A stretch of 64,000 nucleotides of DNA from Ciconia boyciana. Taxonomy: Eukaryota. The stretch is from assembly GCF_034638445.1 (NCBI RefSeq), contig NC_132969.1, positions 255,423 through 319,422 of the forward strand. Reading direction: 5' to 3'. The stretch's first letter is position 1, and each line of letters opens with the position of its first letter. The notes beneath the pieces were generated by a model. That model was given only the letters and a program-made list of their open reading frames with translations. It was not told the origin of the DNA and ran no database searches. The translations under genes were made by a program, and so were the position numbers. This document shows positions 2,590 to 32,450 of this stretch, in pieces.

Positions 2590-4035
2590 CCCCTAAGCGG
2601 GGGGCGGACCCCTAAGGGGGTTTTTTCTGCGCCTCCCAAGTCGTTCTTCTGCTTCCTAAGTGGGGGGTTGCTGCCCCCTGAGTCTTTTCTTCTGCCCCCT
2701 AAGTCTTTTCTTGTGCCCTCTAAGTCTTTTCTTGTGCCTCCTAAGTGATTCTTCTGCCCCCTAAGTGATTCTTCTGACACCTAAGTCATTTCTTCTGCCC
2801 CGAATGATTCTTCTGACCCCTAAGTCTTTTCTTGTGCCCCCTAAGTCATTTCTTGTGCCCCCTAAGTCATTTCTTGTGCCCCCTAAGTCATTTCTTGTGC
2901 CCCCTAAGTGATTCTTCTGACACCTAAGTCATTTCTTCTGCCCCCTAAGTGATTCTTCTGACGCCTAAGTCATTTCTTCTGCCCCCTAAGTGATTCTTCT
3001 GCCCCCTAAGTCATTCTTCTGCCCCCTAAGTGATTCTTCTGCCCCCTAAGTGATTCTTCTGACACCTAAGTCATTTCTTCTGCCCCGAGTGATTCTTCTG
3101 ACCCCTAAGTCTTTTCTTGTGCCCCCTAAGTCTTTTCTTGTGCCCCCTAAGTGATTCTTCTGACACCTAAGTCATTTCTTCTGCCCCCTAAGTGATTCTT
3201 GTGCCCCCTAAGTCTTTTCTTGTGCCCCTAAGTGATTCTTCTGCCCCTAAGAGATTCTTCTGCCCCCTAAGTGATTCTTCTGCCCCTAAGATATTCTTCT
3301 GCCCCTAAGATATTCTTCTGCCCCCTAAGAGATTCTTCTGCCCCCTAAGTGATTCTTCTGACGCCTAAGTCATTTCTTCTGCCCCCTAAGTGATTCTTCT
3401 GCCCCCTAAGTGATTCTTCTGCCCCCTAAGCGGGGGGTCTGACCCCTAAGTGGGTTTTTCTGCCCCCCCGCAGTTGTTCTTCTGCCTCCTAAGTGGGGGT
3501 TTGCTGCCCCCTAAGTCATTTCTTTTGCTCCCTAAGTCATTTCTTCTGCCCCCTAAGTGATTCTTCTGCCCCCTAAGTGATTCTGACTCTTCTGCCCCTA
3601 AGTGATTCTGACTCTTCTGCCCCCTAAGTCATTTCTTCTGCCCCCTAAGAGATTCTTCTGCCCCCTAAGAGATTCTTCTGCCCCCTAAGTGATTTCTTCT
3701 GCCCCTAAGAGATTCTTCTGACCCCTAAGTGGGGGGGTCTGACCCCTAAGTGGGTTTTTTCTGCCCCCCCCCCCCCCCCCAGTCATTCTTCTGCCTCCTA
3801 AGTGTGGGTTTGCTGCCTCCTACGTAATTTTTGCTGCCCCCTAAGTGATTTCTTCTGCCCCCTAAGTCTTTTCTTCTGACCCCTAAGTGATTCTTCTGCC
3901 CCCTAAGTGATTCTTCTGCCCCCAAGTGATTCTTCTGATGCCTAAGTCATTTCTTCTGCCCCCTAAGAGATTCTTCTGCCCCCTAAGAGATTCTTCTGCC
4001 CCCTAAGTGATTCTTCTGCCCCCTAAGTGTTTTTT
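2590..4035. repeat. Minisatellite, ~19-20 bp unit ccccctaagtgattcttctg (EIF3C intron)
   Basis: ~70 tandem copies with minor variants (tcatttcttctg / agattcttctg). Confidence 0.85.
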
Positions 4036-4047
4036 TCCGCCCCACAG

Positions 4048-4207
4048 GACCGCCGGAATCCATGCGGGAACACGTGGTGGCGGCGTCCAAAGCGATGAAG
4101 ATGGGCGACTGGAGAACCTGCCACCGCTTCGTGGTCAATGAGAAGATGAACGGGAAGGTGTGGGACCTCTTCCCCGAGGCCAAGAAAGTCCGCGCCATGC
4201 TGGTCAG
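4048..4207 (+). CDS. EIF3C: EIF3C coding exon
   Basis: Acceptor cccacag (4041-4047). (G)[52 protein letters not shown](R) matches human eIF3c. Donor GT 4208-4209; the split codon AG|G is completed by the next exon. Confidence 0.88.
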
Positions 4208-4214
4208 GTCTGTG

Positions 4215-5460
4215 GGGTGGGGGCGCTGTGGGGCGGGGGCGCTGTGGGGCGGGGCCTGTTGTCTTGCATCCTTCAACCTCCATCTTGTGTCCTTCAACCT
4301 CCATCTTGTGTCTCCAACCTCCATCTTGTGTCTCCAACCTTCGTCCCGCGTCCTTCAACCTCCATCTTGTGTCTCCAACCTCCATCCCGCGTTCTTCAAC
4401 CTCCATCCCGCGTTCTTCAACCTCCATCTTGTGTCTCCAACCTCCGTCCCGCATCCTTCAACCTCCATCCCGCGTCCTCCAACCTCCATCTTGTGTCTCC
4501 AACCTCCATCTTGTGTCTCCAACCTTCGTCCCGCGTCCTTCAACCTCCATCTTGTGTCTTCAACCTCCATCCCGCGTTCTTCAACCTCCGTCCCGCATCC
4601 TTCAACCTCCATCTTGTGTCTCCAACCTCCATCTTGTGTCTCCAACCTCCATCCCGCGTTCTTCAACCTCCATCCCGCGTTCTTCAACCTCCATCCCGCA
4701 TCCTTCAACCTCCATCTTGTGTCTCCAACCTCCGTCCCGCGTCCTTCAACCTCCGTCCCGCGTCCTTCAACCTCCATCTTGTGTCTCCAATCTCCATCTT
4801 GTGTCTCCAACCTTCGTCCCGTGTCCTTCAACCTCCGTCCCACGTCCTTCAACCTCCGTCCCACGTCCTTCAACCTCCATCTTGTGTCTTCAACCTCCGT
4901 CCCACGTCCTTCAACCTCCATCTTGTGTCTTCAACCTCCGTCCCACGTCCTTCAACCTCCATCTTGTGTCTCCAACCTCCGTCCCGCGTCCTTCAACCTC
5001 CGTCCCGCGTCCTTCAACCTCCATCTTGTGTCTCCAACCTCCGTCCCGCGTCCTTCAACCTCCGTCCCGCGTCCTTCAACCTCCGTCCCGCGTCCTTCAA
5101 CCTCCATCTTGTGTCTCCAACCTCCATCTTGTGTCTCCAACCTCCGTCCCGCGTCCTTCAACCTCCGTCCCACGTCCTTCCATCTCCGTCCCGCGTCCTT
5201 CCATCTCCGTCCCGTGTCCTTCAACCTCCGTCCCGCGTCCTTCAACCTCCATCTTGTGTCTTCAACCTCCGTCCCGCGTCCTTCAACCTCCATCTTGTGT
5301 CTTCAACCTCCGTCCTGCGTCCTTCCATCTCCGTCCTGCGTCCTTCCATCTCCGTCCCGCGTCCTTCCATCTCCGTCCCGCGTCCTTCAACCTCCATCTT
5401 GCGTCTCCAAGCTCCATCTTGTGTCTTCCATCTCCATCTTGTGTCCTTCAACCTCCACCT
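4215..5460. repeat. Minisatellite, ~20-21 bp units tccttcaacctccatcttgtg / cctccgtcccgcg (EIF3C intron)
   Basis: ~60 tandem copies read directly. Confidence 0.85.
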
Positions 5461-5472
5461 CGTGTTCTCCAG

Positions 5473-5538
5473 GAAGATCCAAGAGGAGTCACTCCGCACG
5501 TATCTCTTCACCTACAGCAGCGTTTACGACTCCATCAG
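5473..5538 (+). CDS. EIF3C: EIF3C coding exon
   Basis: Acceptor ttctccag (AG 5471-5472). (R)[21 protein letters not shown](S) is identical to human. Donor GT 5539-5540. Confidence 0.88.
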
Positions 5539-5615
5539 GTGACGGGCGGGGCATGGGCGTGGTGTGGGTGGGGCGTTGGATGGGCGTGGCGTGGCTGACT
5601 CCTCCCCCTCGTTAG

Positions 5616-5703
5616 CATGGAGATCCTGGCGGACATGTTTGAGCTGGACCTGCCGACGGTTCACAGCATCATCAGCAAGATGATCATCAACGAGGAGCTG
5701 ATG
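5616..5703 (+). CDS. EIF3C: EIF3C coding exon
   Basis: Acceptor ctcgttag (5611-5615). (S)[29 protein letters not shown]. Donor GTGAGC at 5704. Confidence 0.88.
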
Positions 5704-5776
5704 GTGAGCCCGTGCCGTGGGGCGGCCGTGGGGCGGCCGTGGGGTGGAGCTTGACTTTGTCCCGCCCTTCTTCCAG

Positions 5777-5939
5777 GCGTCTCTTGACCAACCGACGCAG
5801 ACGGTGATGATGCATCGGACGGAACCGACGGCGCAGCAGAACCTGGCGCTCCAATTGGCCGAGAAGTTGGGCAACTTGGTGGAGAACAACGAGCGGGTCT
5901 TCGACCACAAACAAGGCTCCTACGGCGGCTACTTCCGAG
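5777..5939 (+). CDS. EIF3C: EIF3C coding exon
   Basis: Acceptor cttccag (5771-5776). [54 protein letters not shown](D). Donor GT 5940-5941. Confidence 0.88.
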
Positions 5940-6160: not shown

Positions 6161-6293
6161 GCAACTTGGCACCGATTCGCCTCGTTATGGGGAGCGTTGA
6201 CCCGTGTGGGGCCAGGTTAATGAGTGACGACGAAGCGGGTGGGGGGCGGGGGGAAGGAGGATTTAACGCCTGCCCCACGGCGAGCGCCGACCT

Positions 6294-6476
6294 TTGAGCG
6301 TCAGCCATGGGGCAGGAGCGGGGGGGGGTCGCCGTGGGCGCCCCACGGCGAAAGGAACCCCGTTAAATTTTGGGGAGGGGACGGCGTTTCGGTTGAAGAG
6401 TGGGCGGGAGCTGGTGCGGGCGCTGCTGGTGCTGCGGCTCTGCGCCTTCCCCCGCCTGGTCCGACACGCCGGCACG
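6294..6476 (+). CDS. PRODH2: PRODH2 (hydroxyproline dehydrogenase) first recognisable coding exon; start codon unresolved
   Basis: LNFGEGTAFRLKSGRELVRALLVLRLCAFPRLVRHAGTV aligns with human PRODH2 LSFDGGAFHLKGTGELTRALLVLRLCAWPPLVTHG. Donor GTGAGA at 6477. There is no in-frame ATG upstream; the nearby ATGs at 6220 and 6307 are out of frame. The exon lies only ~130 bp after the EIF3C poly(A) signal. Confidence 0.65.
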
Positions 6477-7464: not shown

Positions 7465-7611
7465 TACGCGGCGACGCGGGGGGTGCGGGTGCTGGTGGAC
7501 GCGGAGCAGAGCTACGTCAACCCGGCGTTGAGTTTGACGACTTTGGCCTTGATGGCGCGGCACAACCGGGCTTCGCCGTGGGTCTGGAACACCTACCAAG
7601 CTTATCTCCAG
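7465..7611 (+). CDS. PRODH2: PRODH2 coding exon (FAD-binding proline dehydrogenase domain)
   Basis: YAATRGVRVLVDAEQSYVNPALSLTTLALMARHNRASPWVWNTYQAYLQ matches human YARAQHVRLLVDAEYTSLNPALSLL...GPWVWNTYQACLK. Donor GTAACT at 7612. Confidence 0.85.
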
Positions 7612-7692
7612 GTAACTTATGGGGCAGAGTTATGGGGCAGAGCCCCACGGCGCCACGCTAAAAGCTTTACCCCCCCCCCGCCCCCGCAACAG

Positions 7693-7859
7693 GACGGGAA
7701 GAAACGGTTGGCGGGGGACGCGGCGACGGCGCGGCGGCGGGGGGTGTGTTTCGGGGTGAAGTTGGTGCGAGGGGCGTACCTGGAATTGGAACGGCGCCGG
7801 GCGAGGGAAGGGGGGGACCCCGATCCGGTGCACCCCACTTTAGATGACACCCACCGCAG
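7693..7859 (+). CDS. PRODH2: PRODH2 coding exon
   Basis: Acceptor ccgcaacag. DGKKRLAGDAATARRRGVCFGVKLVRGAYLELERRRAREGGDPDPVHPTLDDTHR matches human AGLAFGVKLVRGAYLDKERAVA...DPTQPDYEATSQSY. Donor GTAACC at 7860. Confidence 0.85.
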
Positions 7860-7931
7860 GTAACCTGGGGGTTTTGGGGGGGGGGGAGGGGCGTCGAGCC
7901 CTATAGCGAGCCCCCCAACTTTTCCCGGCAG

Positions 7932-8042
7932 CTACGGCGAGTGCCTGGAGCTGGCGCTGGCGCTGGCGGCGCAGGACAGGGAGGACGTGGGGGTGATGGT
8001 GGCCACCCATAACGAGCTCTCGGTGCTCCACGCCACCCAAAG
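7932..8042 (+). CDS. PRODH2: PRODH2 coding exon
   Basis: Acceptor tttcccggcag. (S)YGECLELALALAAQDREDVGVMVATHNELSVLHATQ(R) matches human SRCLELMLTHVARHGPMCHLMVASHNEESVRQATKR. Donor GTGGGT at 8043. Confidence 0.85.
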
Positions 8043-8129
8043 GTGGGTGTCACCCCCTTAAAATTTTAGGGGACCCCCCCCCCCAAAAAAACCCCAACAA
8101 CTTAGCCCTGAACCCCCGTTTCGCGGCAG

Positions 8130-8218
8130 AATGGAGGAGCTGGGCATCCCCCGGCAAGGAGGCGGCGTCTGCTTCGGGCAGCTGCTGGGGATGTGCGACC
8201 ACGTCTCCCTGGCGTTGG
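8130..8218 (+). CDS. PRODH2: PRODH2 coding exon
   Basis: Acceptor tcgcggcag. (R)MEELGIPRQGGGVCFGQLLGMCDHVSLAL(G) is almost identical to human MWELGIPLDGTVCFGQLLGMCDHVSLALG. Donor GTAGGG at 8219. Confidence 0.88.
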
Positions 8219-8313
8219 GTAGGGTGACCCCGCCTCTCCCCGCCATCTTTTGGGGTGCCCTCCCCCCCAAAAAAAAAAATTCACCCCCCCCGTCCCGTCC
8301 CGGTTTGGGGTAG

Positions 8314-8483
8314 GCGAAGCCGGTTACGCCGTCTACAAGTCGGTGCCGTACGGGGGAGCGGAGGCGACGCTGCCGTACCTGGCGCGGCGGGCGCAGGAGA
8401 ATCAGGGGGTGCTGCAGGGCGCTCGGCGGGAGAGACGGCTCCTCGCCCGTGAGCTGCGGAGACGCCTCCTGCGGAGAGCCTGA
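8314..8483 (+). CDS. PRODH2: PRODH2 terminal coding exon with TGA stop
   Basis: Acceptor ggtttggggtag. (G)EAGYAVYKSVPYGGAEATLPYLARRAQENQGVLQGARRERRLLARELRRRLLRRA* matches human QAGYVVYKSIPYGSLEEVIPYLIRRAQENRSVLQGARREQELLSQELWRRLL. Stop at 8481-8483. Confidence 0.88.
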
Positions 8484-10599: not shown

Positions 10600-12800
10600 A
10601 GGGAGGGGGGGGCACTGGGGACACTGGGTGCGCTGGGGGCCGTGCTTGCGCTGGGGGCACTGGCGGCACTGGTGGCACTGCTGACACTGGTGGCCGGGCT
10701 CGCACTGGGGGCACTGGTGGCCGTGCTCGCACTGGGGGCACTGCTGACACTGGGTGCGCTGGTGGCACTGGTGGCCGTGGTCACGCTGGGGGCACTGGTG
10801 GCCGTGCGCGCGCTGGGGGCACTACTGACACTGGTGGCCGTGCTCTCACTGGGAGCACTCGTGGCCCTGGTGGCCATGCTCACGCTGGTGGCACCGAGTG
10901 CACTGGTGGCACTGGTGGCCGTGCTCACACTGGCGCCACTGGCGGCCATGGTCACGCTGGGGGCACTGCTGACACTGGTGGTCATGCTCACGCTGGCAGT
11001 ACTGGCGGTCATGCTCCCACTGGTGGCACGGCTGACACTGGCAGCCATGCTCACACTGGTGACACTGGTGTTCGTGCTCTCACTGGGGGCACTGGCAGCA
11101 CTGGCTGCACTGGTGGCCATGCTCCCACTGGTGGCACTGGCGGTCATGCTCACGCTGGTGACACTGGTGGTCGTGCTCGCATGGGGGGCACTGGTGGCCA
11201 CGCTCACACTGGGGGCACTGGTGGTCATGCTCTCACTGGGGGCACTGCTGACACTGGTGGTCGTGCTCTCACTGGGTGCACTGGTGGTCGTGCTCACACT
11301 GGTGACAGCGGGTGCACTGGTGGCCATGCTCATGCTGGGGACACTGGTGAGACTGGTGTCCACGCTCACACTGGGGGCACTGGTGACACCGGTGGCCATG
11401 CTTGCACTGGCAACACTGGTGGGCACGGTAGTGCTGGCAGCCATGGTGCCACTGGTGGTCATGGTGGCACTGGTGGTCATGGTGGCGCTGGCGCTGCAGG
11501 CGATGGTGACACTGGTGCTCATGGGGGCACTCATGGCGCTGGTGGCCATGCTCACACCGGTGGTCATGGTGTCACTGCCGGTGATGGTGGCACTGGCGGT
11601 ACTGCTGGTCACAGTGACGCTGGCTTTCGCGGTGACACTGGCAGTTCATGGTGACACCGGTGGCTTTGGTGACGCTGGCCGTCATGGTGACACCGGTGGT
11701 CATGCTGACAGCAGCAGCGATGGTGACACCGGTGCTCTTGGTGACACCGGCAGTCATGTGGCACCAGTGGTTGTGGTGTCACTGCCAGTCAAAGTGACAC
11801 CAGTGGTCACGGTGACGCTGGCCGTCGTGGTGACGCTGGCTGTCGTGGTGACACTGGCGGTCATGGTGACATGGTCACGGTGACGCTGCTGGTCGTCATG
11901 ACACCGGCAGTCGTGGTGGCACCGGTGGTCATGGTGGCACTGCCAGGGATGGTGGCACTGGTGGTCACAGTGACGCTGGCCGTCATGGGGGCACTGGTGG
12001 TCATGCTGACACCAGCAGTCATGGTGATGCTTGTCGTCACAGTGACATAGTCATGGTAACAGTGACGGTCGTGATGACACCGGCACTCGTGGTGGCACCG
12101 GTGGTCATGGTGGCACTGCCAGCGATGGTGACACCGGCCATCACGGTGACACTGGCTGTCATGCTGACACTGGCACTCGTGGTGACACTGGTGGTCATGC
12201 TGACACCAGCAGTCACGGAGATGCTGGTGGTCGTGGAGACATGGTCACGATGACGCTGGTGGTACTGGTGACACCGGCAGTTGTGGTGGCACCCATGGTC
12301 ATGGTGTCACTGCCAGCGATGGTGACACCGGTGGTCATGGTGACGCTGGCGGTCCTGGTGACACCGGCCGTCATGCTGAAACCATCAGTCATGGTGATGC
12401 TGGCGCCCATGGTGACATAGTCATGGTGACAGTGGTGGTCATGGTGGCACCGGTGGTCATGGTGTCACTGCCAGCAATGGTGACGCTGGCCGTCACACTG
12501 ATGCTGGTGGTCACGGTGACACCGGCCATCATGCTGACAGCAGCAGTCATGGTGACGCTGGCAGTCACAGTGACATAGTCACGGTGACACTCATGGTGGC
12601 ACTGGTGGTCATGGTGGCACTGCCAGCGATGGTGACACCGGCCATCATGCTGACACCAGCAGTCATGGTGACACTGGCGGTCACGGTGACATAGTCACGG
12701 TGACGGCAGCGGCCATGGTGGCACTGGTGGTCATGGTGTCACTGCCAGCGATGGTGATACTGGTGGTCATGGTGGTGCCGGCAGTCACGGTGACATAGTC
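10600..12800. repeat. 12-bp-periodic minisatellite family (GGTGGTCATGGTGAC / GGCACTGGTGGC variants), MAZ intron 1
   Basis: Hundreds of tandem 12-nt units. All six frames lack stop codons, which produces the giant spurious ORFs in the track (e.g. 10098..11612, 10120..11883). Confidence 0.85.
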
Positions 12801-12998
12801 ACGGCGACGCTCATGGTGGTACCGGTGGTCGTGGTGTCACTGCCAGCGACGGTGACGCCGGCCGTCACGGTGATGCCGGCGCTCCTGGCGACACCGGCAG
12901 TCACGGTGGCACCGGTGGCCACGGCGCCACTGCCAGCGACGGTGACACCGGCCCTCACACCGCCGCCGCCGGTGACGGTGCCATCGGTGCCGCCGCAG

Positions 12999-13689: not shown

Positions 13690-16650
13690 CGGGGCGCGGG
13701 GGCGGGGAGCGGGGCAGGGGGCACGGCGGGGCTGGGGGTGACGGGGGAGACGGTGGGCACGGTGGCGCGGGTGGTTGTGGTGATGCTGGGCGTCATGGGG
13801 ACGATAGGAGTCATGGTGATGCTGGCGGTCATGGGGACGATGGAGGTCGTGGTGACGCTGGGCGTCATGGGGACGATGGGCGTCATGGGGACAATGGGGG
13901 TCATGGTGATGCTGGCGGTCGTGGTGGGACTGGTGGTCACGGTGGCACTGGGCATCATGGGGACAACGGTGGTCATGGTGGTGCAGGCAGTCATGGTGAT
14001 GCTGGTGGTCGTGGTGACGCTGGGCGTCATGGGGACGATGGTGGTCATGGTGATGCTGGGCGTCATGGTGACACTGCAGGTCATGGTGGCACGGGCGGTC
14101 GTGGTGATGCTGGGTGTCGTGGTGACACTGCAGGTCATGGTGATGCTCGGTGTCATGGTGACAATGGCGGTCATGGTGACGTTGGGCATCATGGGGATGC
14201 TGGAGATCATGGTGATGCTGGCGGTCATGGTGGCACTGGCAGGCACGGTGACGATGGTCATGGTGACGCTGGGCATCATGGTGACAATGGAGGTCATGGT
14301 GGCATTGGTGGTCATGGTGATGCTGGGTGCCATTGTGACTGGCTGTCATGGTGACACTGGTGGCCATAGTGGTGCAGGGCGTCATGGTGACAATGCAGGT
14401 CATGGCGGCACTGGTGGTCGTGGTGACGCTGGGTGTCATGGTGACAGTGGCGGTCATGGTGATGCTGGGCGTCATGGTGGCGCTGGTGACCATAGCGACG
14501 CTGGAGATCACGGTGATGGTGGTGGTCACGGTGGCGCTGGTGGTCATGGTGGGACTGGCGCTCATGGTGACGCTGGGGGTCACAATGACACTAGGGGTCA
14601 TGATGATGCTGGAGGTCATGGGGACAATGGTGGTCGTGGTGACAATGCTGGTCACGGTGGTGTTGGGGGTCACGGTGACGCTGGCGGTCATGGGGACAGC
14701 GTTGGTCATGGTGACAATGGCAGTCATGACACTGGGTGTCGTGGTGACAACGGAGATCATGGAGATGCTGGTGGTCACGGCGGGACTGGCGGTCATGGTG
14801 ACAATGGGGGTCACAGTGACGCTGCTGGTCGCGATGATACTGGCAGTTATGGTGGCGCTGGTGGTCGTGGTGGCCATGGCAGTCACGGTGATGCTGGTGG
14901 TCATGGTGGCGCTGGGGGCCATAGTGACGCTGGAGGTCACGGTGACAATGGTGGTCGTGGTGACAACGGTGGTCATGGTGACAGTGGTGGTCACAGCGGT
15001 GCTGGTGGTCATGGTGACAATGGTGGTCATGGTGGCACTGGGCATCATGGTGGTGCTGGTGGCCGTGGTGGTGCTGGTGGTCACGGTGGCGCTGGTGGTC
15101 ATGATCATGCTGGTGGTCATGGTGGTGCTGGCGGTCATGGAGGCACTTGAGGTCACTGTTGGTCACGGTGGCGCTGGTAGCCATGGTGATACCGGCGGTC
15201 AAGGTGATGCTGGACACCATGATGATACCGGTGGTCATGGTGACACTGGTGGTCATGGTGACGGTGGGGGTCATGGAGATGCCGGTGGTCGTGGTGGCAC
15301 TTGAGGTCATTGGTTGTCACAGCGATGGTGGTGGTCATGATGACGTTGGCTGTCACGGTGACAATGGTGGTCACAGTGGGGCTGGTGGTCATGGTGACGA
15401 TGGTGGTCACGGTGGCACGGGGGGTCATGCTGACGGTGAGGGCCATGGAGATGCTGGGGGTCATGGTGGCACTGCTGGTCATGGTGCCAATGGTGGTCAC
15501 GGTGGCACCAGTGGTCATGGTGGCACTGGGGGCCATAGTGACGCTGGAGGTCACGGAGGTGCAGGGGGTCATGGTGGCACTGGTGGTCATGGTGGGACTG
15601 GTGGTCATGGTGACCCTGGCAACCTTGGTGGCCCTGCTGGCCGTGGTGAAGCTGGTGGCCATGGTGGCCGTGGTGATGCTGATGGCCCTGGTGATGCTGG
15701 TGGCCATGGTGGCCATATATGCTGGTGGCCATGATGGCCCTGATGACACCGGTGGTCATTGTGGCCATGGTGACACTGGTGGCCGTGGTGATGCTGGTGG
15801 CCCTGGTGATGCTGGGAGCCCTGGTGATGCTGGTGACGCTGGTGGCCATGGTGACACTGGTAGCCATGGTGATGCTGGTGGCCATGATGGCCATGGTGAT
15901 GCTGGGGGCCCTGGTGATGCTGGTGACACTGGTGGCTGTGGTGATGCTGGGGGCCATGGTGATGCTGCTGATGCTGGTGGCCATGGTGTGACTGGTGGCC
16001 ATGGTGATGCTGGTGGTCCTGGTGGCCGTGGTGACGCTGGTGGCCATGGTGATGCTGGTGAGGCTGGTGGCCATGGTGGGACTGGTGGCCATGGTGATGC
16101 TGGTGGTCCTGGTGGCCGTGGTGACGCTGGTGGCCATGGTGATGCTGGTGGCCATGGCGGGACTGGTGGCCATGGTGACGCTGGTGGCCATAGTGGCCGT
16201 GGTGACGCTGGTGGTTCTGGTGATGCTGGTGACGCTGGTGGTCACAGTGGCTCTGGTGGCCATGGTGATACTGGTGGCCACAGTGACACTGGTGGCCATG
16301 GTGATGCTGGTGGCCCTGGTGGCCCTGGTGGCCATGGTGATGCTGAGGGCCCTGGTGATGCTGGTGGCCATGGTGGCTGTGGTGACGCTGGGGGTCATTG
16401 TGGCCGTGGTGACGCTGGGGGCCCTGGTGACGCTGGGGGCCTTGGTGATGCTGGTGGCCATGGTGACGCTGGGGGCCCTGGTGATGCTGGTGACGCTGGG
16501 GGCCCTGGTGATGCTGGTGGCCATGGTGACGCTGGGGGCCCTGGTGGCCGTGGTGATGCTGGAGGTCCTGGTGATGCTGGTGACGCTGGTGGCCGTGGCG
16601 GGACTGGTGGCCACGGTGATGCTGGTGGCCGTGGTGGCCCTGCCCTCCCC
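13690..16650. repeat. 12-bp-periodic minisatellite family (GGTGGTCATGGTGATGCT variants), MAZ intron 2
   Basis: Same family as 10600-12800. Stop-free in all frames. Confidence 0.85.
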
Positions 16651-16726
16651 GGTGTCCCCCCCCCCGCCCCCGCCGCCGCCGGCCGTGCCGTCACCGCGCT
16701 TTGGCCTCTCCCCCCTCCCCGCCCAG

Positions 16727-16871: not shown

Positions 16872-17043
16872 ACCTGCGAGGCCGCCTTCGCCACCAAGGA
16901 CCGGCTGCGGGCGCACACGGTGCGGCACGAGGAGAAGGTGCCGTGCCACGTCTGCGGGAAGATGCTGAGCGCCGCCTACATCTCCGACCACATGAAGGTC
17001 CACAGCCAGGGCCCCAACCACGTCTGCGAGCTCTGCAACAAAG
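16872..17043 (+). CDS. MAZ: MAZ zinc-finger coding exon
   Basis: Acceptor ccgccctag. TCEAAFATKDRLRAHTVRHEEKVPCHVCGKMLSAAYISDHMKVHSQGPNHVCELCNK(G) matches human. Donor GTAGGG at 17044. Confidence 0.9.
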
Positions 17044-17049
17044 GTAGGG

Positions 17050-19560
17050 GCGCGCCGTGGGGCGGGGTGTGGGGCGGGGTGTGGGGCGCGCCGTGGGGCG
17101 GGGTGTGGGGCGGGCCGTGGGGTGTGGGGTTTGGGGAGCGATGGTTATGGGGAGGGGTTGGGTTTGGCCGGCTGTTGTTTGCGTAGGGGTTGCGGGGCGG
17201 TTGTGGGGTGCGCCGTGGGGCGGGGGTGGGGGTGGGGTTTGGGGGTGGCGGTTCAGGGGAGGGGTTGGTTTGCCCGGCTGTTGTTGTGTAGGGATTGGGG
17301 TGCTGTGGGGCGGCTGTGGGGCAGGTTGTAGGGCAGCTGTGGGGCAGGGCATGGGGCAGGCCGTGGGGCATGGGGTTTGGGGGGTGGCGGTTCAGGGGAG
17401 GGGTTGGTTTGCCCGGCTGTTGTTCTGTAGGGATTGGGGTGCTGTGGGGCAGCTGTGGGGTGGCCGTGGGGCAGGCTGTGGGGCAGTTGTGGGGCAGGCC
17501 ATGGGGCAGGCCGTGGGGTGTGGGGTTTGGGGGTGTCAGTTTGGGGGAAGGGTTGGTTGTCCTGGCTCTGTGGGGCAGAGAGGCACCGTCCCACGTAGGG
17601 CTCATGTGGGGCGCTGATCTGTGGGGCACAGGCTGTATGGGGCGCTGATCTGTGGGGCACAGGCTCTATGGGGTGCTGATCTATGGGGCAGAGGCTGCGT
17701 GGGGCACAGGGTCGCTGTGCCAGGTAGGGCTGCTGTTGCTGTGGGGCACCAGCCCCATGGGGTACAGGCTCTATGGGACACTGGCTCTATGGGGCACTGT
17801 CCCACAGCTCCCGGGCTCTATGGGGCACTACCCCATGGCTCCCAGGCTCTATGGGGCGCTGCCCCACAGTTCCTAGGCTCTATAGGGCACGACCCCACAG
17901 CTCCCTTCTGCTATGGGACACTGCCCCATAGCTCATGGGCTCTATGGGGCACTATTGCCATGGCTCCCAGGCTCTATGGGGCACCGCCCCCCAGCTCCCA
18001 GGCTCTATGGGGCACCGCCCCACGGCTCCCAGGCTCTATGGGGCACCGCCCCGCAGCTCCCAGGCTCTATGGGGCACCACCCCCCACCTCCCAGGCTCTA
18101 TGGGGCACTGTCCCATGGCTCCCAGGCTCTATGGGGCACCACCCCCCAGCTCCCAGGCTCTATGGGGCACCGCCCCGCAGCTCCCAGGCTCTATGGGGCA
18201 CCGCCCCCCACCTCCCTGCAGCTATGGGGCACCGCCCCCCAGCTCCCAGGCTCTATGGGGCGCTGCCCCCCACCTCCCAGTCCCTCTAGCTCCCCCCCCA
18301 CCACCCCGCAGCCCCCGCCCCCAAGCGCCGTGGGTCTGACGCCGCTTCGTCCCCAGGCTTCACCACGGCGGCGTACCTGCGGGTGCACGCGGTGAAGGAC
18401 CACGGGGTGGCGGCCCCCCCGCCCCCCGACGCCTCCTCTGCAAACTCTGCGGGGTTCACTGCAAGACCCCCGCCCAGCTCAGCGGCCACCTCCAGACCCA
18501 CGGCGCAGCCCCCCCCGCCGAGGGGCCCGCTCCCCAGGGGGCTCCGCCGCTCCGCTGACGCGCCCACAGGCAAGGCCCGGCGGGGGGACGGGGGACGGGG
18601 GGGCTGGGGAGGGGGATGGAGGGGGGACGGGGGGAGGGAGGGGGGGGAGGGACTTGGGGGGCAGCCCCATAGAGCCTGGGAGTTCTGCCACGTAGAGCCT
18701 GGGAGTTCTGCCCCGTGGATCGCGGGAGTTCTGCCCCATAGAGCCTGGGAATCCTGCCCCATGGATCATGGGAGTTCTGCCCCATGGATCGTGGGAGTTC
18801 TGCCCCATAGATCACAGGATTTCTGCCCCATAGAGCCTGGGAGTTCTGCCCCATAGAGCCTGGGAGTCCTGCCCTGTAGAGCTTGGGAGTTCTGCCCCAT
18901 AGATCACAGGAGTTGTGTCCCATAGAGCCTGAGAGTTCTGCCCCATAGATCATGGGAGTTCTGCCCCATAGAGCCTAGGAGTTCTGCTCCATAGATCATG
19001 GGAGTTCTGCCCCATGGATCGCAGTTCTGCCCCACAGAGCCGGGGAGCCCCGCCCCATAGATCATGGGAGTTCTGCCCCATAGAGCCTGGGAACTCTGCC
19101 CCATAGATCGCAGGAGTTCTGTCCCATAGATTATGGGAGTTCTACCCTGTAGATAGAACCTGGGAGCTCTGCCCCATAGCGTGCACTGGTGGGTGCTTGG
19201 GGGGCAGCCCCATAGAGCCTGGGAGCCCTGCCCCATAGATCGTGGGAGTTCTGCCCCATAGCATGGGAATGGGGGTGTTTGGGGGGCAGCCCCATAGAGC
19301 CTGGGAGTCCTGCCCCATAGATCACAGGAGTTCTGCCCCAGAGAGCCTGGGATTTCTGCCCCGTAGTGCGGGGATGGGGATGCTTGGGGGGCAGCTCCAT
19401 AGAGCCAGGGATGGGGGGCAGCCCCATAGATCCTGGGAGCCCTGCCCCATAGCGTGGGGCGGGAGGGGACAGCACCCGGGGGGGAGGGGGGGGCTCATCT
19501 TGCCCCAGAGCCGGGGGATGGGGGTCACTTGGGGGGCAGCCCCATAGATCCGGGCAGTCC
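17050..19560. repeat. Minisatellite arrays in MAZ intron 4 (units ~24-30 bp: ctatggggcaccgccccacagctcccaggct; ccatagatcatgggagttctgcc)
   Basis: Read directly. Several sub-arrays carry the recurring motifs ccccatag / ctatgggg. Confidence 0.8.
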
Positions 19561-27752: not shown

Positions 27753-27877
27753 GCCGAGCCCGCAGACGCAACGGCTGGAGCCCCCAAATCCCCCGCGAGG
27801 AAACGGGGGCCCCCCTTCCTCCCGTCGACTGGTCGCGCCTTCGGGGCGTCATCAGCTCCGACGGCGAGAGCGATTAA
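27753..27877 (+). CDS. HIRIP3: HIRIP3 terminal coding exon with TAA stop
   Basis: Acceptor ttattccctcag. (G)[40 protein letters not shown] matches human GRPRRRTAWNPLGEAAPPGEL...PPDWSHMRGIISSDGESN*. Stop at 27875-27877, followed by an A15 tract and ATTAAA. Confidence 0.88.
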
Positions 27878-28169
27878 CCCCCCCCAAAAAAAAAAAAAAA
27901 TTTAAAAATTAAACTATATTCATTCCAAAGAGATTTTTTGGGGGTGTTTTCACGTTCTTTTGGGGGTGCTGTAAAAATTTGGGGGGGGTCAATATTTACG
28001 CTGACGGAGGAAAAAACCCGGGGGGCGTTTTGGGGGGGGTCTTCTCCTTCCAGCTGGAAAAGATCTCGCCCCGTCCGGAGAATTTGTTCTTCTAATTTCT
28101 TGTGCCGTTTCATATCCGATAAAACTTTATCCAGGCGAGCTTCCCGCTTCTGCCCGCGCGTCGGGGGGC
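27874..28169 (-). CDS. PAGR1: PAGR1 terminal coding exon; as written the ORF stops at 27874-27876 and overlaps the HIRIP3 stop, but the conserved C-terminus is read in another frame with its stop at 27989-27991
   Basis: Minus strand: acceptor aaatccggcag, then (G)[45 protein letters not shown].. matching human [44 protein letters not shown]. The +2 frame reads ..[10 protein letters not shown] (human ..LFPRQRKY*). The as-written frame runs through the poly-T tract (..[10 protein letters not shown]). Confidence 0.7.
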
Positions 28170-28290
28170 CTGCCGGATTTATCGGGGGGCTAGCGAATAG
28201 CGGGGTCCCCCCTTTTATTTAATTTAAAAAAAAAAAAAAAAAGAAAAAGAAAAGAAAAGGATGGAGGCGGAGGGATGGGGGCGCGCTTAC

Positions 28291-28373
28291 CCGGCGTTCG
28301 CCGCCGATCGATGAGGGAATTTTTGGGGGTGACGGGTTCGTCGTCGAAGTCGAACTCGGTGGGGACGGGCGGC
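28291..28373 (-). CDS. PAGR1: PAGR1 coding exon 2
   Basis: Minus strand: acceptor ttttccccttccag, then (K)[27 protein letters not shown](G). Human is [28 protein letters not shown]. Donor GTAAGC. Confidence 0.88.
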
Positions 28374-28379
28374 CTGGAA

Positions 28380-28560
28380 GGGGAAAAAGCAAATAAAAAT
28401 AAAAATAAATTCTGTAATAAAAGCAAAATCTTCTAATAAAAGCAAAATCCTATAATAAAAACCAAATCTTCTAATAAAAACAAAATCTTCTAATAAAAAC
28501 AAAATCTTCTAATAAAACCAAAATCCTATAATAAAACCAAAATCCTATAATAAAACCAAA
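28380..28560. repeat. AT-rich ~20-bp tandem repeat (aaaatcttctaataaaaacaaa)
   Basis: Read directly; at the 3' edge of PAGR1 intron 1 (minus orientation). Confidence 0.85.
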
Positions 28561-30125
28561 ATCTTCTAATAACAATAATATCGTACATTATCATGTTATT
28601 GTTTGTATTATTATATGCATTACATATGTATAATAATATTAAAATATAATATGATAATATAGTAAATAATATTTAATATTACATCATATTACATGATATA
28701 ATATTAAACTATATTATACAATAATACTCTATATTATATAATCACATTTTATATATTATATAATAATATGTAACATAATATTATATTATATATATTTAAA
28801 TATATAACATCATAATATAATGTATTATATATATAATATGTATTTTATAATATATAACATATAATAATACATTAGTATATATTAACACCTAATAACATAT
28901 ATTAATATGTAATATATATTTTTATATATAATACATCATATATGTATATTTAATATATTATATATATACTACATAACAAAACAATAATGTTATCATAGTA
29001 TAATACTATTTTTATGTATTATAAATTAGTAATAGTATCGTAATTATTAATCGTATCATATTATTATGATATTATGATAATCATACGGTGTTATTAATTG
29101 TATGACACAGTATAATACTATTTTTAATGTATTATAAATTATTAATAGTATCGTAATTATTAATTGTATCATATTATTATAATATTATGATAATCATAGG
29201 GTGTTATTAATCATGACATAGTATAATAGTAATTTTTATACATTATAAATTATTAATAGTATCGTAATTATTAATTGTATCATATTATTATTATATTATG
29301 ATAATCATAGGGTGTTATTAATCGTATGACAGAGTATAATACTATTTTTTATATATTATAAATTATTAATAGTATCGTAATTATTAATCATATCATATTA
29401 TTATAATATGATAATCATAGGGTGTTATTAATCGTATGACACAGTACAATACTATTTTGTATGTATTATAAATTATTAATAGTATTGTAATTATTAATCA
29501 TATCATATTATGATATTATAATCACACGGAGTTATTAATCGTATGACATAATATAATACTATTTTTTATGTATTATAAATTATTAATAGTATTGTAATTA
29601 TTAATTGTATCATATTATTATGCTATTATGATAATCATAGGGTGTTATTAATCGTATGTCATAGTATAATACTACATTTTAGGTATTATAGATTATTAAT
29701 AGTATTGTAATTATTAATCGTATCATATTATTATGATATTATGATAATCACATGCTGTTATTAATCGTATGACATAGTATAATACTATTTTGTATGTATT
29801 ATAAATTATTAATAGTATTGTAATTATTAATCGTATCATATTATTATGCTATTATGATAATCATACCGTGTTATTAATCGTATGTCATAGTATGATACTA
29901 CATTTTATGTATTATAAATTATTAATAGTATTGTAATTATTAATCGTATCATATTATTATGCTATTATGATAATCATACGGTGTTATTAATTGTATGTCA
30001 TAGTATGATACTACATTTTATGTATTATAAATAATTAATAGTATCGTAATTATTAATCGTATCATATTATTATGATATTATAATCACACGGTCTTATTAA
30101 TCGTATGACATCATACAACACCACG
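28560..30125. repeat. AT-rich satellite, ~118-bp unit (..tattataaattattaatagtatcgtaattattaatcgtatcatattattatgatattatgataatcatagggtgttattaatcgtatgacacagtataatactatttt..), ~13 copies inside PAGR1 intron 1
   Basis: Read directly; estimated ~80% A+T inside a window that is otherwise >65% G+C. Confidence 0.9.
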
Positions 30126-30208
30126 TAGAAAAAACGCTAAAAAGAATAAAAACGAGGGGAGGGGATTTGCCCCCCCCCCCGCAATCGGCCGCGGCGCCGC
30201 CATCTTAC

Positions 30209-30576
30209 TTCTCCTCCTCTTCCTCCTCGCTTTCGGGCTGCCCGGCGGAGCGAGGTTCCTCCTCGCTGTCGGGTTCGGGGGTCGGCGCGCGCCGAGGGAG
30301 AGGAACGTGGCGGAGAGGAAGGCTCCCGGTTTCGGCGATGAGTTCGTAAAGTCGTCGGATATCGGGGGGCGGCGGTAACCAACCGTCGGGGGGTTCCCCT
30401 TCTTCTTCGTCGCTCCGAGGAACCCCCCAATCTTCTTCCTCTTCTTCCTCGAGCGTCGCCGTTTCTTCCGCCGCTGGGTTTTCTCCTTCGAGCGGCGGCG
30501 GTTCCGCGGCGTCGGCGACGGCGAGGGATTGCAGCCCCGACGTCACCTCCGCCGCTTCCTCGCTCGCCGGCTCCAT
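30209..30576 (-). CDS. PAGR1: PAGR1 coding exon 1 (acidic N-terminal region)
   Basis: Minus-strand ATG in gcggccATGg is the reverse complement of 30574-30576. [88 protein letters not shown] matches human PAGR1 (EVTSGLQALAVED...DWCVPCSDEE..EIQRLYELLAAHGTLEL..LPRRPPTPEAQSEEE). Donor AA|GTAAGA is the reverse complement of 30203-30208. Confidence 0.85.
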
Positions 30577-30599: not shown

Positions 30600-32450
30600 G
30601 GGAGGGGTCAGGCGGCCCCCAAAAAAGCTGCGATTCACCCCAAAAGGGGATGGGAGGAACCGGCGGGCCAGGCCTGAGGTGATCCCGGTGCCCGTAGGGC
30701 CGCCATTTTGAGGCCTGAGGTGGTCCCATCACCCCTGGGGCCGCCATTTTGAGCCCTGAGGTGATCCTGGGGCCGCCATTTTGCGCCCTGAGGTGATCCC
30801 ATCACCCCTGGGGCCACCATGTTGAGCCCTGAGGTGGTCCCGTCACCCCTGGGGCCACCATTTGGAGCCCTGAGGTAGTCCTGGGGACGCCATTTTGCAC
30901 CCTGAGGTGATCCCATCACCCCTGGGGCCACCATGTTGAGGCCTGAGGTGGTCCCGTCACCCCTGGGGCCACCATTTGGAGCCCTGAGGTAGTCCTGGGG
31001 ACGCCATTTTGCGCCCTGAGGTGATCCCATCACCCCTGGGGCCACCATGTTGAGGCCTGAGGTGGTCCCGTCACCCCTGGGGCCACCATTTGGAGCCCTG
31101 AGGTAGTCCTGGGGACGCCATTTTGCGCCCTGAGGTGATCCCGTCACCCCTGGGGCCACCATGTTAAGCCCTGAGGTGGTCCCGTCACCCCTGGGGCCGC
31201 CATTTTGAGCCCTGAGGTGATCCTGGGGCCGCCATTTTGCGCCCTGAGGTGATCCCATCACCCCTGGGGCCACCATGTTGAGCCCTGAGGTGGTCCCGTC
31301 ACCCCTGGGGCCACCATTTGTAGTCCTGGGGACGCCATTTTGAGGCGTGAGGTGATCCCATCACCCCTGGGGCCACCATGTTGAGGCCTGAGGTGGTCCC
31401 GTCACCCCTGGGGCCACCATTTGGAGCCCTGAGGTAGTCCTGGGGACGCCATTTTGCGCCCTGAGGTGATCCCGTCACCCCTGGGGCCACCATGTTAAGC
31501 CCTGAGGTGGTCCCGTCACCCCTGGGGCCACCATTTGGAGCCCTGAGGTAGTCCTGGGGACGCCATTTTGCGCCCTGAGGTGATCCCGTCACCCCTGGGG
31601 CCACCATGTTAAGCCCTGAGGTGGTCCCGTCACCCCTGGGGCCGCCATTTGGAGCCCTGAGGTAGTCCTGGGGACGCCATTTTGAGGCGTGAGGTGATCC
31701 CATCACCCCTGGGGCCACCATTTGGAGCCCTGAGGTGATCCTGGGGCCGCCATTTTGCGCCCTGAGGTGATCCCATCACCCCTGGGGCCGCCATGTTGAG
31801 CCCTGAGGTGGTCCCGTCACCCCTGGGGCCGCCATTTGGAGCCCTGAGGTGGTCCCGTCACCCCTGGGGCCGCCATTTGGAGCCCTGAGGTGGTCCCATC
31901 ACTCCTGGGGCCGCCATTTTGACCCCTGAGGTGGTCCTGGGACGGCTATTTTGAGGCCTGAGGTGGTCCCATCACCCCTGGGGCCACCATGTCAAGCCCT
32001 GAGGTGGCCCTGGGGCCATCATTTTGGGCCCTGAGGCAATCCCATCACTCCTGGGGCCACCATTTAGAGCCCTGAGGTAACTTCACACCCCTGGGGCCAC
32101 CATTTTGAGCTCTGAGGTGGTCCCATTACCTCTGGGGCCAGCATGTTAAGCCCTGAGGTAGTCCTGGGGCCACCATTTTGAGCCCTGAGGTGATCCCATC
32201 ACCCCTGGGGCCACCATTTTGAGCCTCGAGGCCATCCCATCACCTCAGAGGCCGCCATGTCGAAGCCTGAGGTGATCCCGTCCCCCCTGGCACCGCCATG
32301 TCGAGCCCTGAGGTAACCTCACACCCCTGTGGCCGCCATTTTGAACCCCGAGGCGACCCTCACACCCGCAGGGCCGCCATCTTGAGGCCTGAGGTAACTC
32401 CAGCCCCCTCACACCCCTGCAGCCGCCATGGCGAGCCCTGAGGCGACCCC
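30600..32450. repeat. Minisatellite, ~41-42 bp unit (gccctgaggtggtcccgtcacccctggggccaccatgttgag) with a ~120-bp higher-order structure, immediately upstream of the PAGR1 ATG
   Basis: ~45 tandem copies. Each unit carries a Kozak-like gccaccatg on the plus strand. Confidence 0.85.

Follow-up and report, generated by a model that had tools for sequence, protein, structure and literature searches.

How did a 1.7-kb block of 82–91% A+T come to lie inside an intron of a spliced gene, within surroundings that are GC-rich and gene-dense? The block belongs to a stretch of 64,000 nucleotides from the stork Ciconia boyciana, which we analyzed as a whole and which we call the window. It is carried by a scaffold of 912 kb, and neighboring exons in it match the eIF-3c, proline dehydrogenase, C2H2 zinc finger, and Sushi families. 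The window has a GC content of 63% overall and of 64.5% without intron 1 of the gene PAGR1, while this intron itself shows 18.5% and positions 28380–30125 show 16.7%. A preliminary description, made from the sequence letters only, had already placed the AT-rich block in PAGR1 intron 1 and had estimated this intron at about 1.8 kb, which agrees with the 1,835 bp (28374–30208) that we measured. The landscape around it, given there as more than 65% GC, is at about 60–65% GC. When we scanned the window in 300-bp windows, the block was the sole stretch below 35% GC; its edges are sharp, and it fills the intron. Tandem repeats are abundant throughout, with 71% of the 64 kb under rows reported by TRF, and in most of the TRF blocks a sub-period of about 18–20 bp is nested in a period of 100–300 bp. 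We ranked the 44 TRF blocks of at least 150 bp by their GC content and found the three blocks of intron 1 at 9–18%, the next-lowest block at 43%, and the median at 65%. The block is indeed the compositional outlier among the arrays that it had been described to be, and it is composition alone that distinguishes it from the other tandem repeats of the window.

The exons that bound the block, the intron, and the parts of the intron are located as follows, from low to high coordinates.

27874..28169, minus strand: coding part of PAGR1 exon 3 as annotated; the spliced translation equals the RefSeq protein
28170..28290, minus strand: PAGR1 intron 2, 121 bp; alternative acceptor in isoform X1
28291..28373, minus strand: PAGR1 exon 2, 83 bp
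28374..30208, minus strand: PAGR1 intron 1, 1,835 bp, GT..AG, 18.5% GC; spliced in both RefSeq isoforms
28374..28397, minus strand: unique 3′-terminal 24 bp of intron 1, comprising the polypyrimidine tract and the CAG acceptor, from reading of the sequence
28398..28572: 19-bp array, unit AATAAAAACAAAATCTTCT on the plus strand and AGAAGATTTTGTTTTTATT in gene sense; TRF 9.3 copies, 89% matches
28573..28993, unstranded: TA-rich low-complexity segment, 421 bp, 10.9% GC
28994..30111, unstranded: 113-bp array; TRF period 113, 10.0 copies, 90% matches, score 1732; 17.9% GC
30112..30208, minus strand: unique 5′ sequence of intron 1, in sense GC-rich at first and T-rich afterwards; orthologue of the short ancestral intron
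30209..30576, minus strand: coding part of PAGR1 exon 1, ATG at 30576, ending in GAGGAGAA followed by the GT donor; translation as in XP_072705251.1; Pfam PAXIP1_C

The three minus-strand exons, when spliced, gave a protein of 248 amino acids, which is 100% identical to XP_072705251.1 (Ciconia boyciana PAXIP1-associated glutamate-rich protein 1 isoform X2) and contains the full-length Pfam domain PAXIP1_C (E=4e-44). Because the spliced product of the bounding exons is this very protein, the block between them is PAGR1 intron 1. The junction of exon 1 and exon 2 is identical in both RefSeq isoforms, which differ at the acceptor of intron 2 only. Intron 1 is bordered by the donor GAGAA|GTAAGA and the acceptor TTTGCTTTTTCCCCTTCCAG|G, as expected from the consensus splice sites that had been noticed on both sides. 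The preliminary description had also preferred a genuine junction over a misjoin, and we come to the same view, given that PAGR1 exons flank the block in collinear order and are spliced into the product of both RefSeq isoforms. Between the arrays and the splice sites lie 97 bp on the donor side and 24 bp on the acceptor side. No AG is present within the 38 nt that precede the acceptor, and the TTTAT motifs in these 38 nt are candidate branch points. The 19-bp array offers possible cryptic 3′ splice sites in sense orientation (TTTTGTTTTTATTAG|A), which we rejected: they fail a filter of 12 pyrimidines in 15 positions, and the difference of isoform X1 lies at intron 2. Separately, we noticed a run of eight G in PAGR1 exon 3 (28032–28039) from which one base is probably missing. 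A ninth G would bring back the conserved C-terminus ...FFLRQRKY, and the conserved PAGR1 stop codon would then be at 27989–27991, so that a probable one-base homopolymer error gives the RefSeq PAGR1 protein a false C-terminus.

Three parts, found nowhere else in the 64 kb, compose the block and together occupy about 93% of the 1,835 bp of the intron. The largest of them, the 113-bp array, consists of ten units that are each 107–113 bp long and that are pairwise 81–96% identical (4–19% different); no other large array of the window reaches its homogeneity of 90% match. The unit holds three internal copies of a motif of about 17 bp (TTATTAATNGTAT), and TRF reports an 18-bp sub-period as well, which is the same nesting of a short in a long period that we see in the neighboring arrays. 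An identity matrix of the ten units gave no indication of a higher-order structure, since identity did not depend consistently on the distance between units, and a blastn search with the consensus found no second copy of the 113-mer within the 64-kb window. These values replace the unit of about 118 bp in about 13 copies that had been reported at first: we find 113 bp (107–113 bp) in ten copies at 28994–30111, and the earlier numbers arose because the whole AT-rich span was divided by a misjudged period. The short AT-rich array that was said to precede it, with a unit of 20 bp, is present, with a period of 19 bp and 9.3 copies at 28398–28572. The 421-bp TA-rich segment between the two arrays is separate from the 113-bp array. 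It has a weak periodicity of 20–50 bp, and its longest pure (TA)n is 10 bp. We considered this segment as a relative of the 113-mer and rejected the idea, as either strand gave only gapped alignments of low quality, a consequence of composition and not of homology. We likewise treat as chance the match between the period of 113 bp and that of 114 bp in a GC-rich array upstream of PAGR1, because the arrays of the window have periods of all sizes.

For a comparison with other species, we identified PAGR1 orthologues by protein search, fetched the genomic loci, and placed the exons by tblastn. PAGR1 of other Ciconiidae was not among the protein search matches. The following introns 1 were obtained.

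Ostrich: 91 bp, 69% GC, short and without an array
Albatross: 101 bp, short; final 46 nt 76% A+T (...GAAAATTTCATGGATTTTTAAGAAATTTTAATTTCCAG)
Alligator: 163 bp, 68% GC, short and without an array
Colobus monkey: 212 bp, 62% GC, short and without an array
Penguin (Eudyptes): 421 bp, 69% GC, second, partial copy of the region at the acceptor of exon 2
Cuculus: 451 bp, 38% GC, A-rich array of 10/21/31 bp of the AAAATGGCCA type
Phaenicophaeus: 2,515 bp, 36% GC, A-rich array of the same type as in Cuculus
Motacilla: 3,902 bp, 48% GC, 21-bp GGTTTGGGATGGATTTGAGAA array and exon-1-like fragments
Camarhynchus: 3,863 bp, 44% GC, exon-1-like fragment

The AT-rich element of the stork is absent from the orthologous intron of every other species examined. 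Because ostrich, albatross, alligator, and colobus monkey have introns of only 91–212 bp, the ancestral PAGR1 intron 1 was short and GC-rich, with a length of about 100–200 bp. The short mammalian intron of the preliminary description is confirmed by the 212 bp of the colobus monkey. Several neoavian lineages expanded this intron independently and with unrelated repeat units. The comparison of orthologous introns, which had been proposed as a check, shows a lineage-specific expansion in the stork, since the orthologues are either short or filled by different, unrelated arrays. Judged from the same sequences, the expansion is later than the split of the stork lineage from penguins and albatrosses.

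The short introns also offer a clue to the source of the AT-rich sequence. In its first 97 bp, which belong to no array, the stork intron shares TTGNG(11)(C)AAATCCC with the 101-bp intron of the albatross, and this 5′ flank is orthologous to the albatross sequence. We aligned the 19-mer (in gene sense AGAAGATTTTGTTTTTATT) to the final 46 nt of the albatross intron; of 1000 shuffles of those 46 nt, only 3 attained the score. The 19-mer also has GTTTTTATT in common with the stork's own 5′ flank of intron 1. Based on this alignment and on the shared motif, we believe that the 19-mer is of local origin and that its array probably grew from the AT-rich region of branch point and polypyrimidine tract in the ancestral intron. 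For the 113-mer, no source was detected in the stork flanks or in the albatross intron, and its local origin is for this reason an assumption. An AT-rich local seed partly explains how so much A+T could arise in a GC-rich setting. To call the block compositionally alien, as was done initially, is therefore an overstatement: its GC content is that of an outlier, but the 3′ half of the ancestral intron was apparently AT-rich already and resembles the 19-mer.

The differences between the ten 113-bp units carry information about the age of the array. Eight CpG positions, which constitute 7% of the unit, take up 19 of the 64 inter-unit substitutions counted against the consensus, and 14 of these 19 are C>T or G>A changes. 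Seven of the 8 CpG columns are variable, compared to 26 of the 105 other columns (Fisher p=7e-4); by base, 14 of 20 G/C columns vary versus 19 of 93 A/T columns. This inter-unit pattern is the signature that methyl-CpG decay leaves in a vertebrate germline. Differences that cluster at CpG in this way argue for DNA that is endogenous and aged; they count against noise from base calling, contamination by an AT-rich organism, and a very recent origin alike. Of the earlier suggestion of a recent insertion or expansion, the lineage-specific expansion stands, while the word recent is doubtful with units that are 4–19% different and that show CpG decay.

Could the block have been brought in from elsewhere, or be no part of the stork genome at all? 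The 113-bp array, or perhaps the whole block, might be a piece of a pre-existing AT-rich satellite of the stork or of a repeat-carrying mobile element that was inserted into the intron. Neither the flanks nor the albatross intron contain a recognizable source of the 113-mer, the composition of the block is unlike that of every other array of the window, and the array is, at 90% match, the most homogeneous of the large ones, all of which would fit such an insertion. We nevertheless regard it as unlikely. The 113-mer occurs at no second place in the 64 kb, reading the boundary sequence by eye revealed no obvious terminal repeats or target duplication, and the edges of the block, when read in this way, pass gradually into T-rich intron sequence. 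We also found no ORF or other hallmark of a mobile element. In addition, the adjoining 19-mer looks locally derived, in other bird lineages this intron grew by local units of their own, and the nesting of 18 bp in 113 bp is that of the neighboring arrays. Centromeric or genome-wide satellite DNA forms arrays of tens of kb or more with many copies in the genome, and the satellite or centromere-like character that had been considered for the block finds no support in the window, where a single 1.1-kb array lies inside a spliced gene and has no second copy in the 64 kb. That the 113-mer represents a stork-specific AT-rich satellite family, or a mode of stuttering that runs against GC-biased gene conversion, is in our view decidedly improbable. 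If it were true, AT-rich arrays would be able to invade or to arise, and to persist, in genes of the most GC-rich and highly recombining bird chromosomes, and they might act there as unwinding or attachment elements or mark a local cold spot of recombination. Hardly credible to us is an artefact, whether from faulty assembly, a chimeric long read, contaminating DNA, or inserted mitochondrial sequence (NUMT). Such an artefact would account for the abrupt switch in composition; a published stork assembly is Nanopore-based (PMC11494145), and the same gene, PAGR1, carries a probable homopolymer error. On the other hand, collinearity and phase are kept between the exons on either side, and the 5′ flank of the block is intron sequence with an orthologue in the albatross, which argues against the chimeric misjoin that had been listed among the possibilities. 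The CpG decay points to a long residence in a CpG-methylating germline and not to base-calling noise. A degenerate 34-nt core of the 113-bp unit had no exact match in collections of viral sequences, prokaryotic genomes, and metagenome contigs, and the whole block gave no blastn match to plasmids and phages; together with the CpG decay, this leaves little of the idea of a contaminant. An Rfam scan of the window returned no family at threshold and no tRNA or rRNA family. The mitochondrial D-loop of the stork is described with about 56% A+T, a 71-bp repeat, and CAAA repeats (PMC13072257), and these published values, which we compared by description only, are unlike a block of 82% A+T with units of 113 bp and 19 bp.

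We also considered that the array might be present for a function or as a site of fragility, namely as an S/MAR, as a DNA-unwinding element or origin, as a nucleosome-organizing or regulatory element, or as a fragile minisatellite of the FRA16B/FRA10B or PATRR type. All of this we think is very unlikely. An A+T content of 82–91% over 1.7 kb in a GC-rich, gene-dense region invites the thought, and the 113-bp unit does fold somewhat better than its shuffles as single-stranded DNA (z = −2.8), but its hairpins, at −12.9 kcal/mol per 113 nt, are weak. The 19-mer array lacks structure, and in the TA-rich part folding does not exceed that of shuffles. AATAAA occurs 0 times on the sense strand of intron 1 and 12 times on the antisense strand; since a single repeated unit with its flank supplies all 12, this strand bias is not independent evidence of selection. 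Counts of MAR proxy motifs (the bipartite MRS signature, A-box, T-box, and topoisomerase II site), were all at or below dinucleotide-shuffle expectation in the AT-rich block, as were ARS motifs, and the 16-bp MRS element and with it the bipartite signature are absent, so that the matrix-attachment function envisaged at the outset finds no echo in the motifs. The element is not conserved either, as it is missing from the orthologous intron in all other species examined, and its units decay at CpG and G/C positions like unconstrained sequence. Functional readings are thus favored by composition only. Regarding fragility, a PATRR is a near-perfect palindrome of hundreds of bases. The stork block resembles PATRRs and the AT-dinucleotide-rich flexibility sequences of common fragile sites in its high A+T content and in some self-complementarity; it differs from them in that it has no long near-perfect palindrome, the best inverted arms being 22–61 nt long at 74–77% complementarity, and in that the longest (TA)n is 10 bp. 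Without a long palindrome, behavior like that of a PATRR or of FRA16B is not indicated. The rare fragile sites FRA16B and FRA10B are built from units of 33 bp and about 42 bp, respectively, and their expanded alleles reach several to tens of kb. Like these, the stork array is an AT-rich minisatellite in an otherwise ordinary region that can be expanded by slippage or unequal exchange; its units of 113 and 19 bp, its arrays of 1.1 and 0.18 kb, and its weak hairpin potential set it apart. Some similarity exists also to the gigantic Y-linked genes of Drosophila with their intronic satellite DNA (Fingerhut & Yamashita 2022, a review cited in PMC12954441), since in both cases tandem repeats inside an intron have to be traversed by the transcription and splicing machinery. 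The stork block measures 1.7 kb compared to megabases there, its unit is complex and not a simple satellite, and nothing about it points to dedicated processing factors.

We therefore consider it likely that the block arose in place, in the stork lineage, by tandem-repeat expansion of the short PAGR1 intron 1, and that it is an AT-rich instance of what has been called intronic sequence stuttering. In chicken, genes on the dot chromosomes have introns that are filled by one or several local clusters of imperfect repeats, with units that measure tens to hundreds of bases (Hron et al. 2026, Genome Biol Evol, PMC12954441). These clusters never enter exons, vary in length between individuals, which is a defining trait, and sometimes include fragments of exons (PMC12954441). 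We assign the new stork block to this phenomenon because here, too, the intron is repetitive and the repeats are confined to it, as reported by Hron et al. 2026. The resemblance extends further: several independent clusters of imperfect tandem blocks fill a single intron, the repeats stop before the exons and leave the coding sequence intact, and at least the 19-mer is seemingly of local origin. The host region, which is GC-rich, has closely packed gene fragments and 71% tandem repeats, and lies on a 912-kb scaffold, would suit a dot microchromosome. Orthologous introns of other birds were expanded independently as well, some with exon-like fragments; we see such copies in intron 1 of Motacilla, Camarhynchus, and Eudyptes. 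In the stork intron 1 no exon-derived fragment gave a match above noise, a feature that is only occasional in stuttering. Two differences are evident, namely that the host is a stork and not the chicken, and that the block has 9–18% GC while the stuttering sequence was described as GC-rich (Hron et al. 2026, PMC12954441), which is typical there but not a formal criterion. Classified in this way, the stork block is an intronic minisatellite or stuttering expansion that is unusual only in its extreme AT-richness within a GC-rich setting.

Expansion in place would have started from an ancestral intron 1 whose 5′ half was GC-rich and whose 3′ half was AT-rich. The 19-mer would have been amplified from the AT-rich half, a TA-rich, microsatellite-like stretch would have been amplified as well, and amplification of an AT-rich motif of about 17 bp may have grown into the 113-bp higher-order unit, although for the latter we can only suppose a local seed. 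The likely mechanisms are replication slippage together with unequal exchange or gene conversion. Selection would trim whatever touches the splice signals: donor, acceptor, and the region of branch point and polypyrimidine tract are all preserved, and splicing of the gene continues. The arrays themselves are most likely tolerated passengers without a function of their own, and the length of the array probably differs between individuals.

In summary, this locus would extend the intron stuttering known from genes of the chicken dot chromosomes to a stork. It adds the stork to cuckoos, passerines, and a penguin as lineages in which the same short ancestral PAGR1 intron was expanded independently with unrelated units. 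For genome annotation it means that blocks of this kind can be genuine and not misjoins. It suggests moreover that stuttering is not bound to GC-rich sequence and can take its seed from what lies close by, in this case from the AT-rich intron sequence around branch point and polypyrimidine tract. PAGR1 intron 1 may thereby serve as a convenient natural marker to see at what speed such arrays turn over and whether GC-biased gene conversion acts on them.

TRF arrays make up 71% of the 64-kb window, and the recognisable gene pieces, PAGR1 among them, are interspersed with these arrays. The order of the pieces agrees in part with that of the genes in human 16p11.2. The features concerned are listed here in window coordinates.

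2131-2745, eIF-3c_N
7465-8480, proline dehydrogenase
10608-12952 and 13752-16654, very long arrays of 9/18-bp period, between zinc-finger gene pieces
16872-17183, C2H2 zinc finger, MAZ-like
28032-28039, minus strand, G8 run in the last exon of PAGR1
30673-32396, GC-rich array immediately upstream of the PAGR1 start codon
41724-41972, minus strand, Sushi domain

The 9/18-bp arrays are built from about 160 copies of the unit GGTGGTCATGGTGACGCT. Because both periods are multiples of three, these arrays could pass for coding sequence and thereby mislead gene predictors. The array upstream of PAGR1 has a higher-order period of 114 bp (12.8 copies, 85% matches), which is itself composed of subunits of about 41 bp, and it holds long minus-strand ORFs made of repeated 38-aa units. 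The closeness of its period to that of the 113-bp AT-rich array in stork PAGR1 intron 1 looks like a coincidence.

As assembled, the G8 run throws the last 18 conserved PAGR1 codons out of frame, and the RefSeq stork protein of 248 aa accordingly ends in a junk tail. Adding one G to the run gives a PAGR1 of 210 aa, whose C-terminus then agrees with those of penguin and albatross. We regard the run as probably a homopolymer-length error of the assembly, a true frameshift being the less likely explanation.

Intron 1 was also inspected in the PAGR1 loci of other birds, each numbered in its own coordinates.

L001, Eudyptes moseleyi, 3176-3250 vs 3515-3590, duplicated acceptor and exon 2 start
L005, Motacilla alba, 4063-4155 and 4896-5027, exon-1-like fragments in an expanded intron
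L007, Camarhynchus parvulus, 6267-6389, exon-1-like fragment in an expanded intron
L002, Cuculus canorus, 3390-3769, A-rich array
L004, Phaenicophaeus curvirostris, 3496-5850, A-rich array

Penguin intron 1 holds a duplicate of poly-G, of the TTTCTTCCCGCAG acceptor and of about 45 nt from the start of exon 2; minus this second copy, the intron would measure about 85 bp. The duplicate is either exon stuttering, in which repeats filling an intron include adjacent exon fragments (Hron et al. 2026, PMC12954441), or an artefact of short-read assembly. In both passerine introns the exon-1-like fragments match the acidic 3' end of PAGR1 exon 1 (tblastn E 1e-5 to 7e-10, possibly inflated by acidic low-complexity sequence), and they fit exon stuttering of this intron as well.

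An A-rich array of the AAAATGGCCA type, with 30-38% GC, is common to the two cuckoos and is five times as long in Phaenicophaeus as in Cuculus. It is a second, independent case in which PAGR1 intron 1 carries an AT-leaning array, and it was apparently passed down within Cuculidae.
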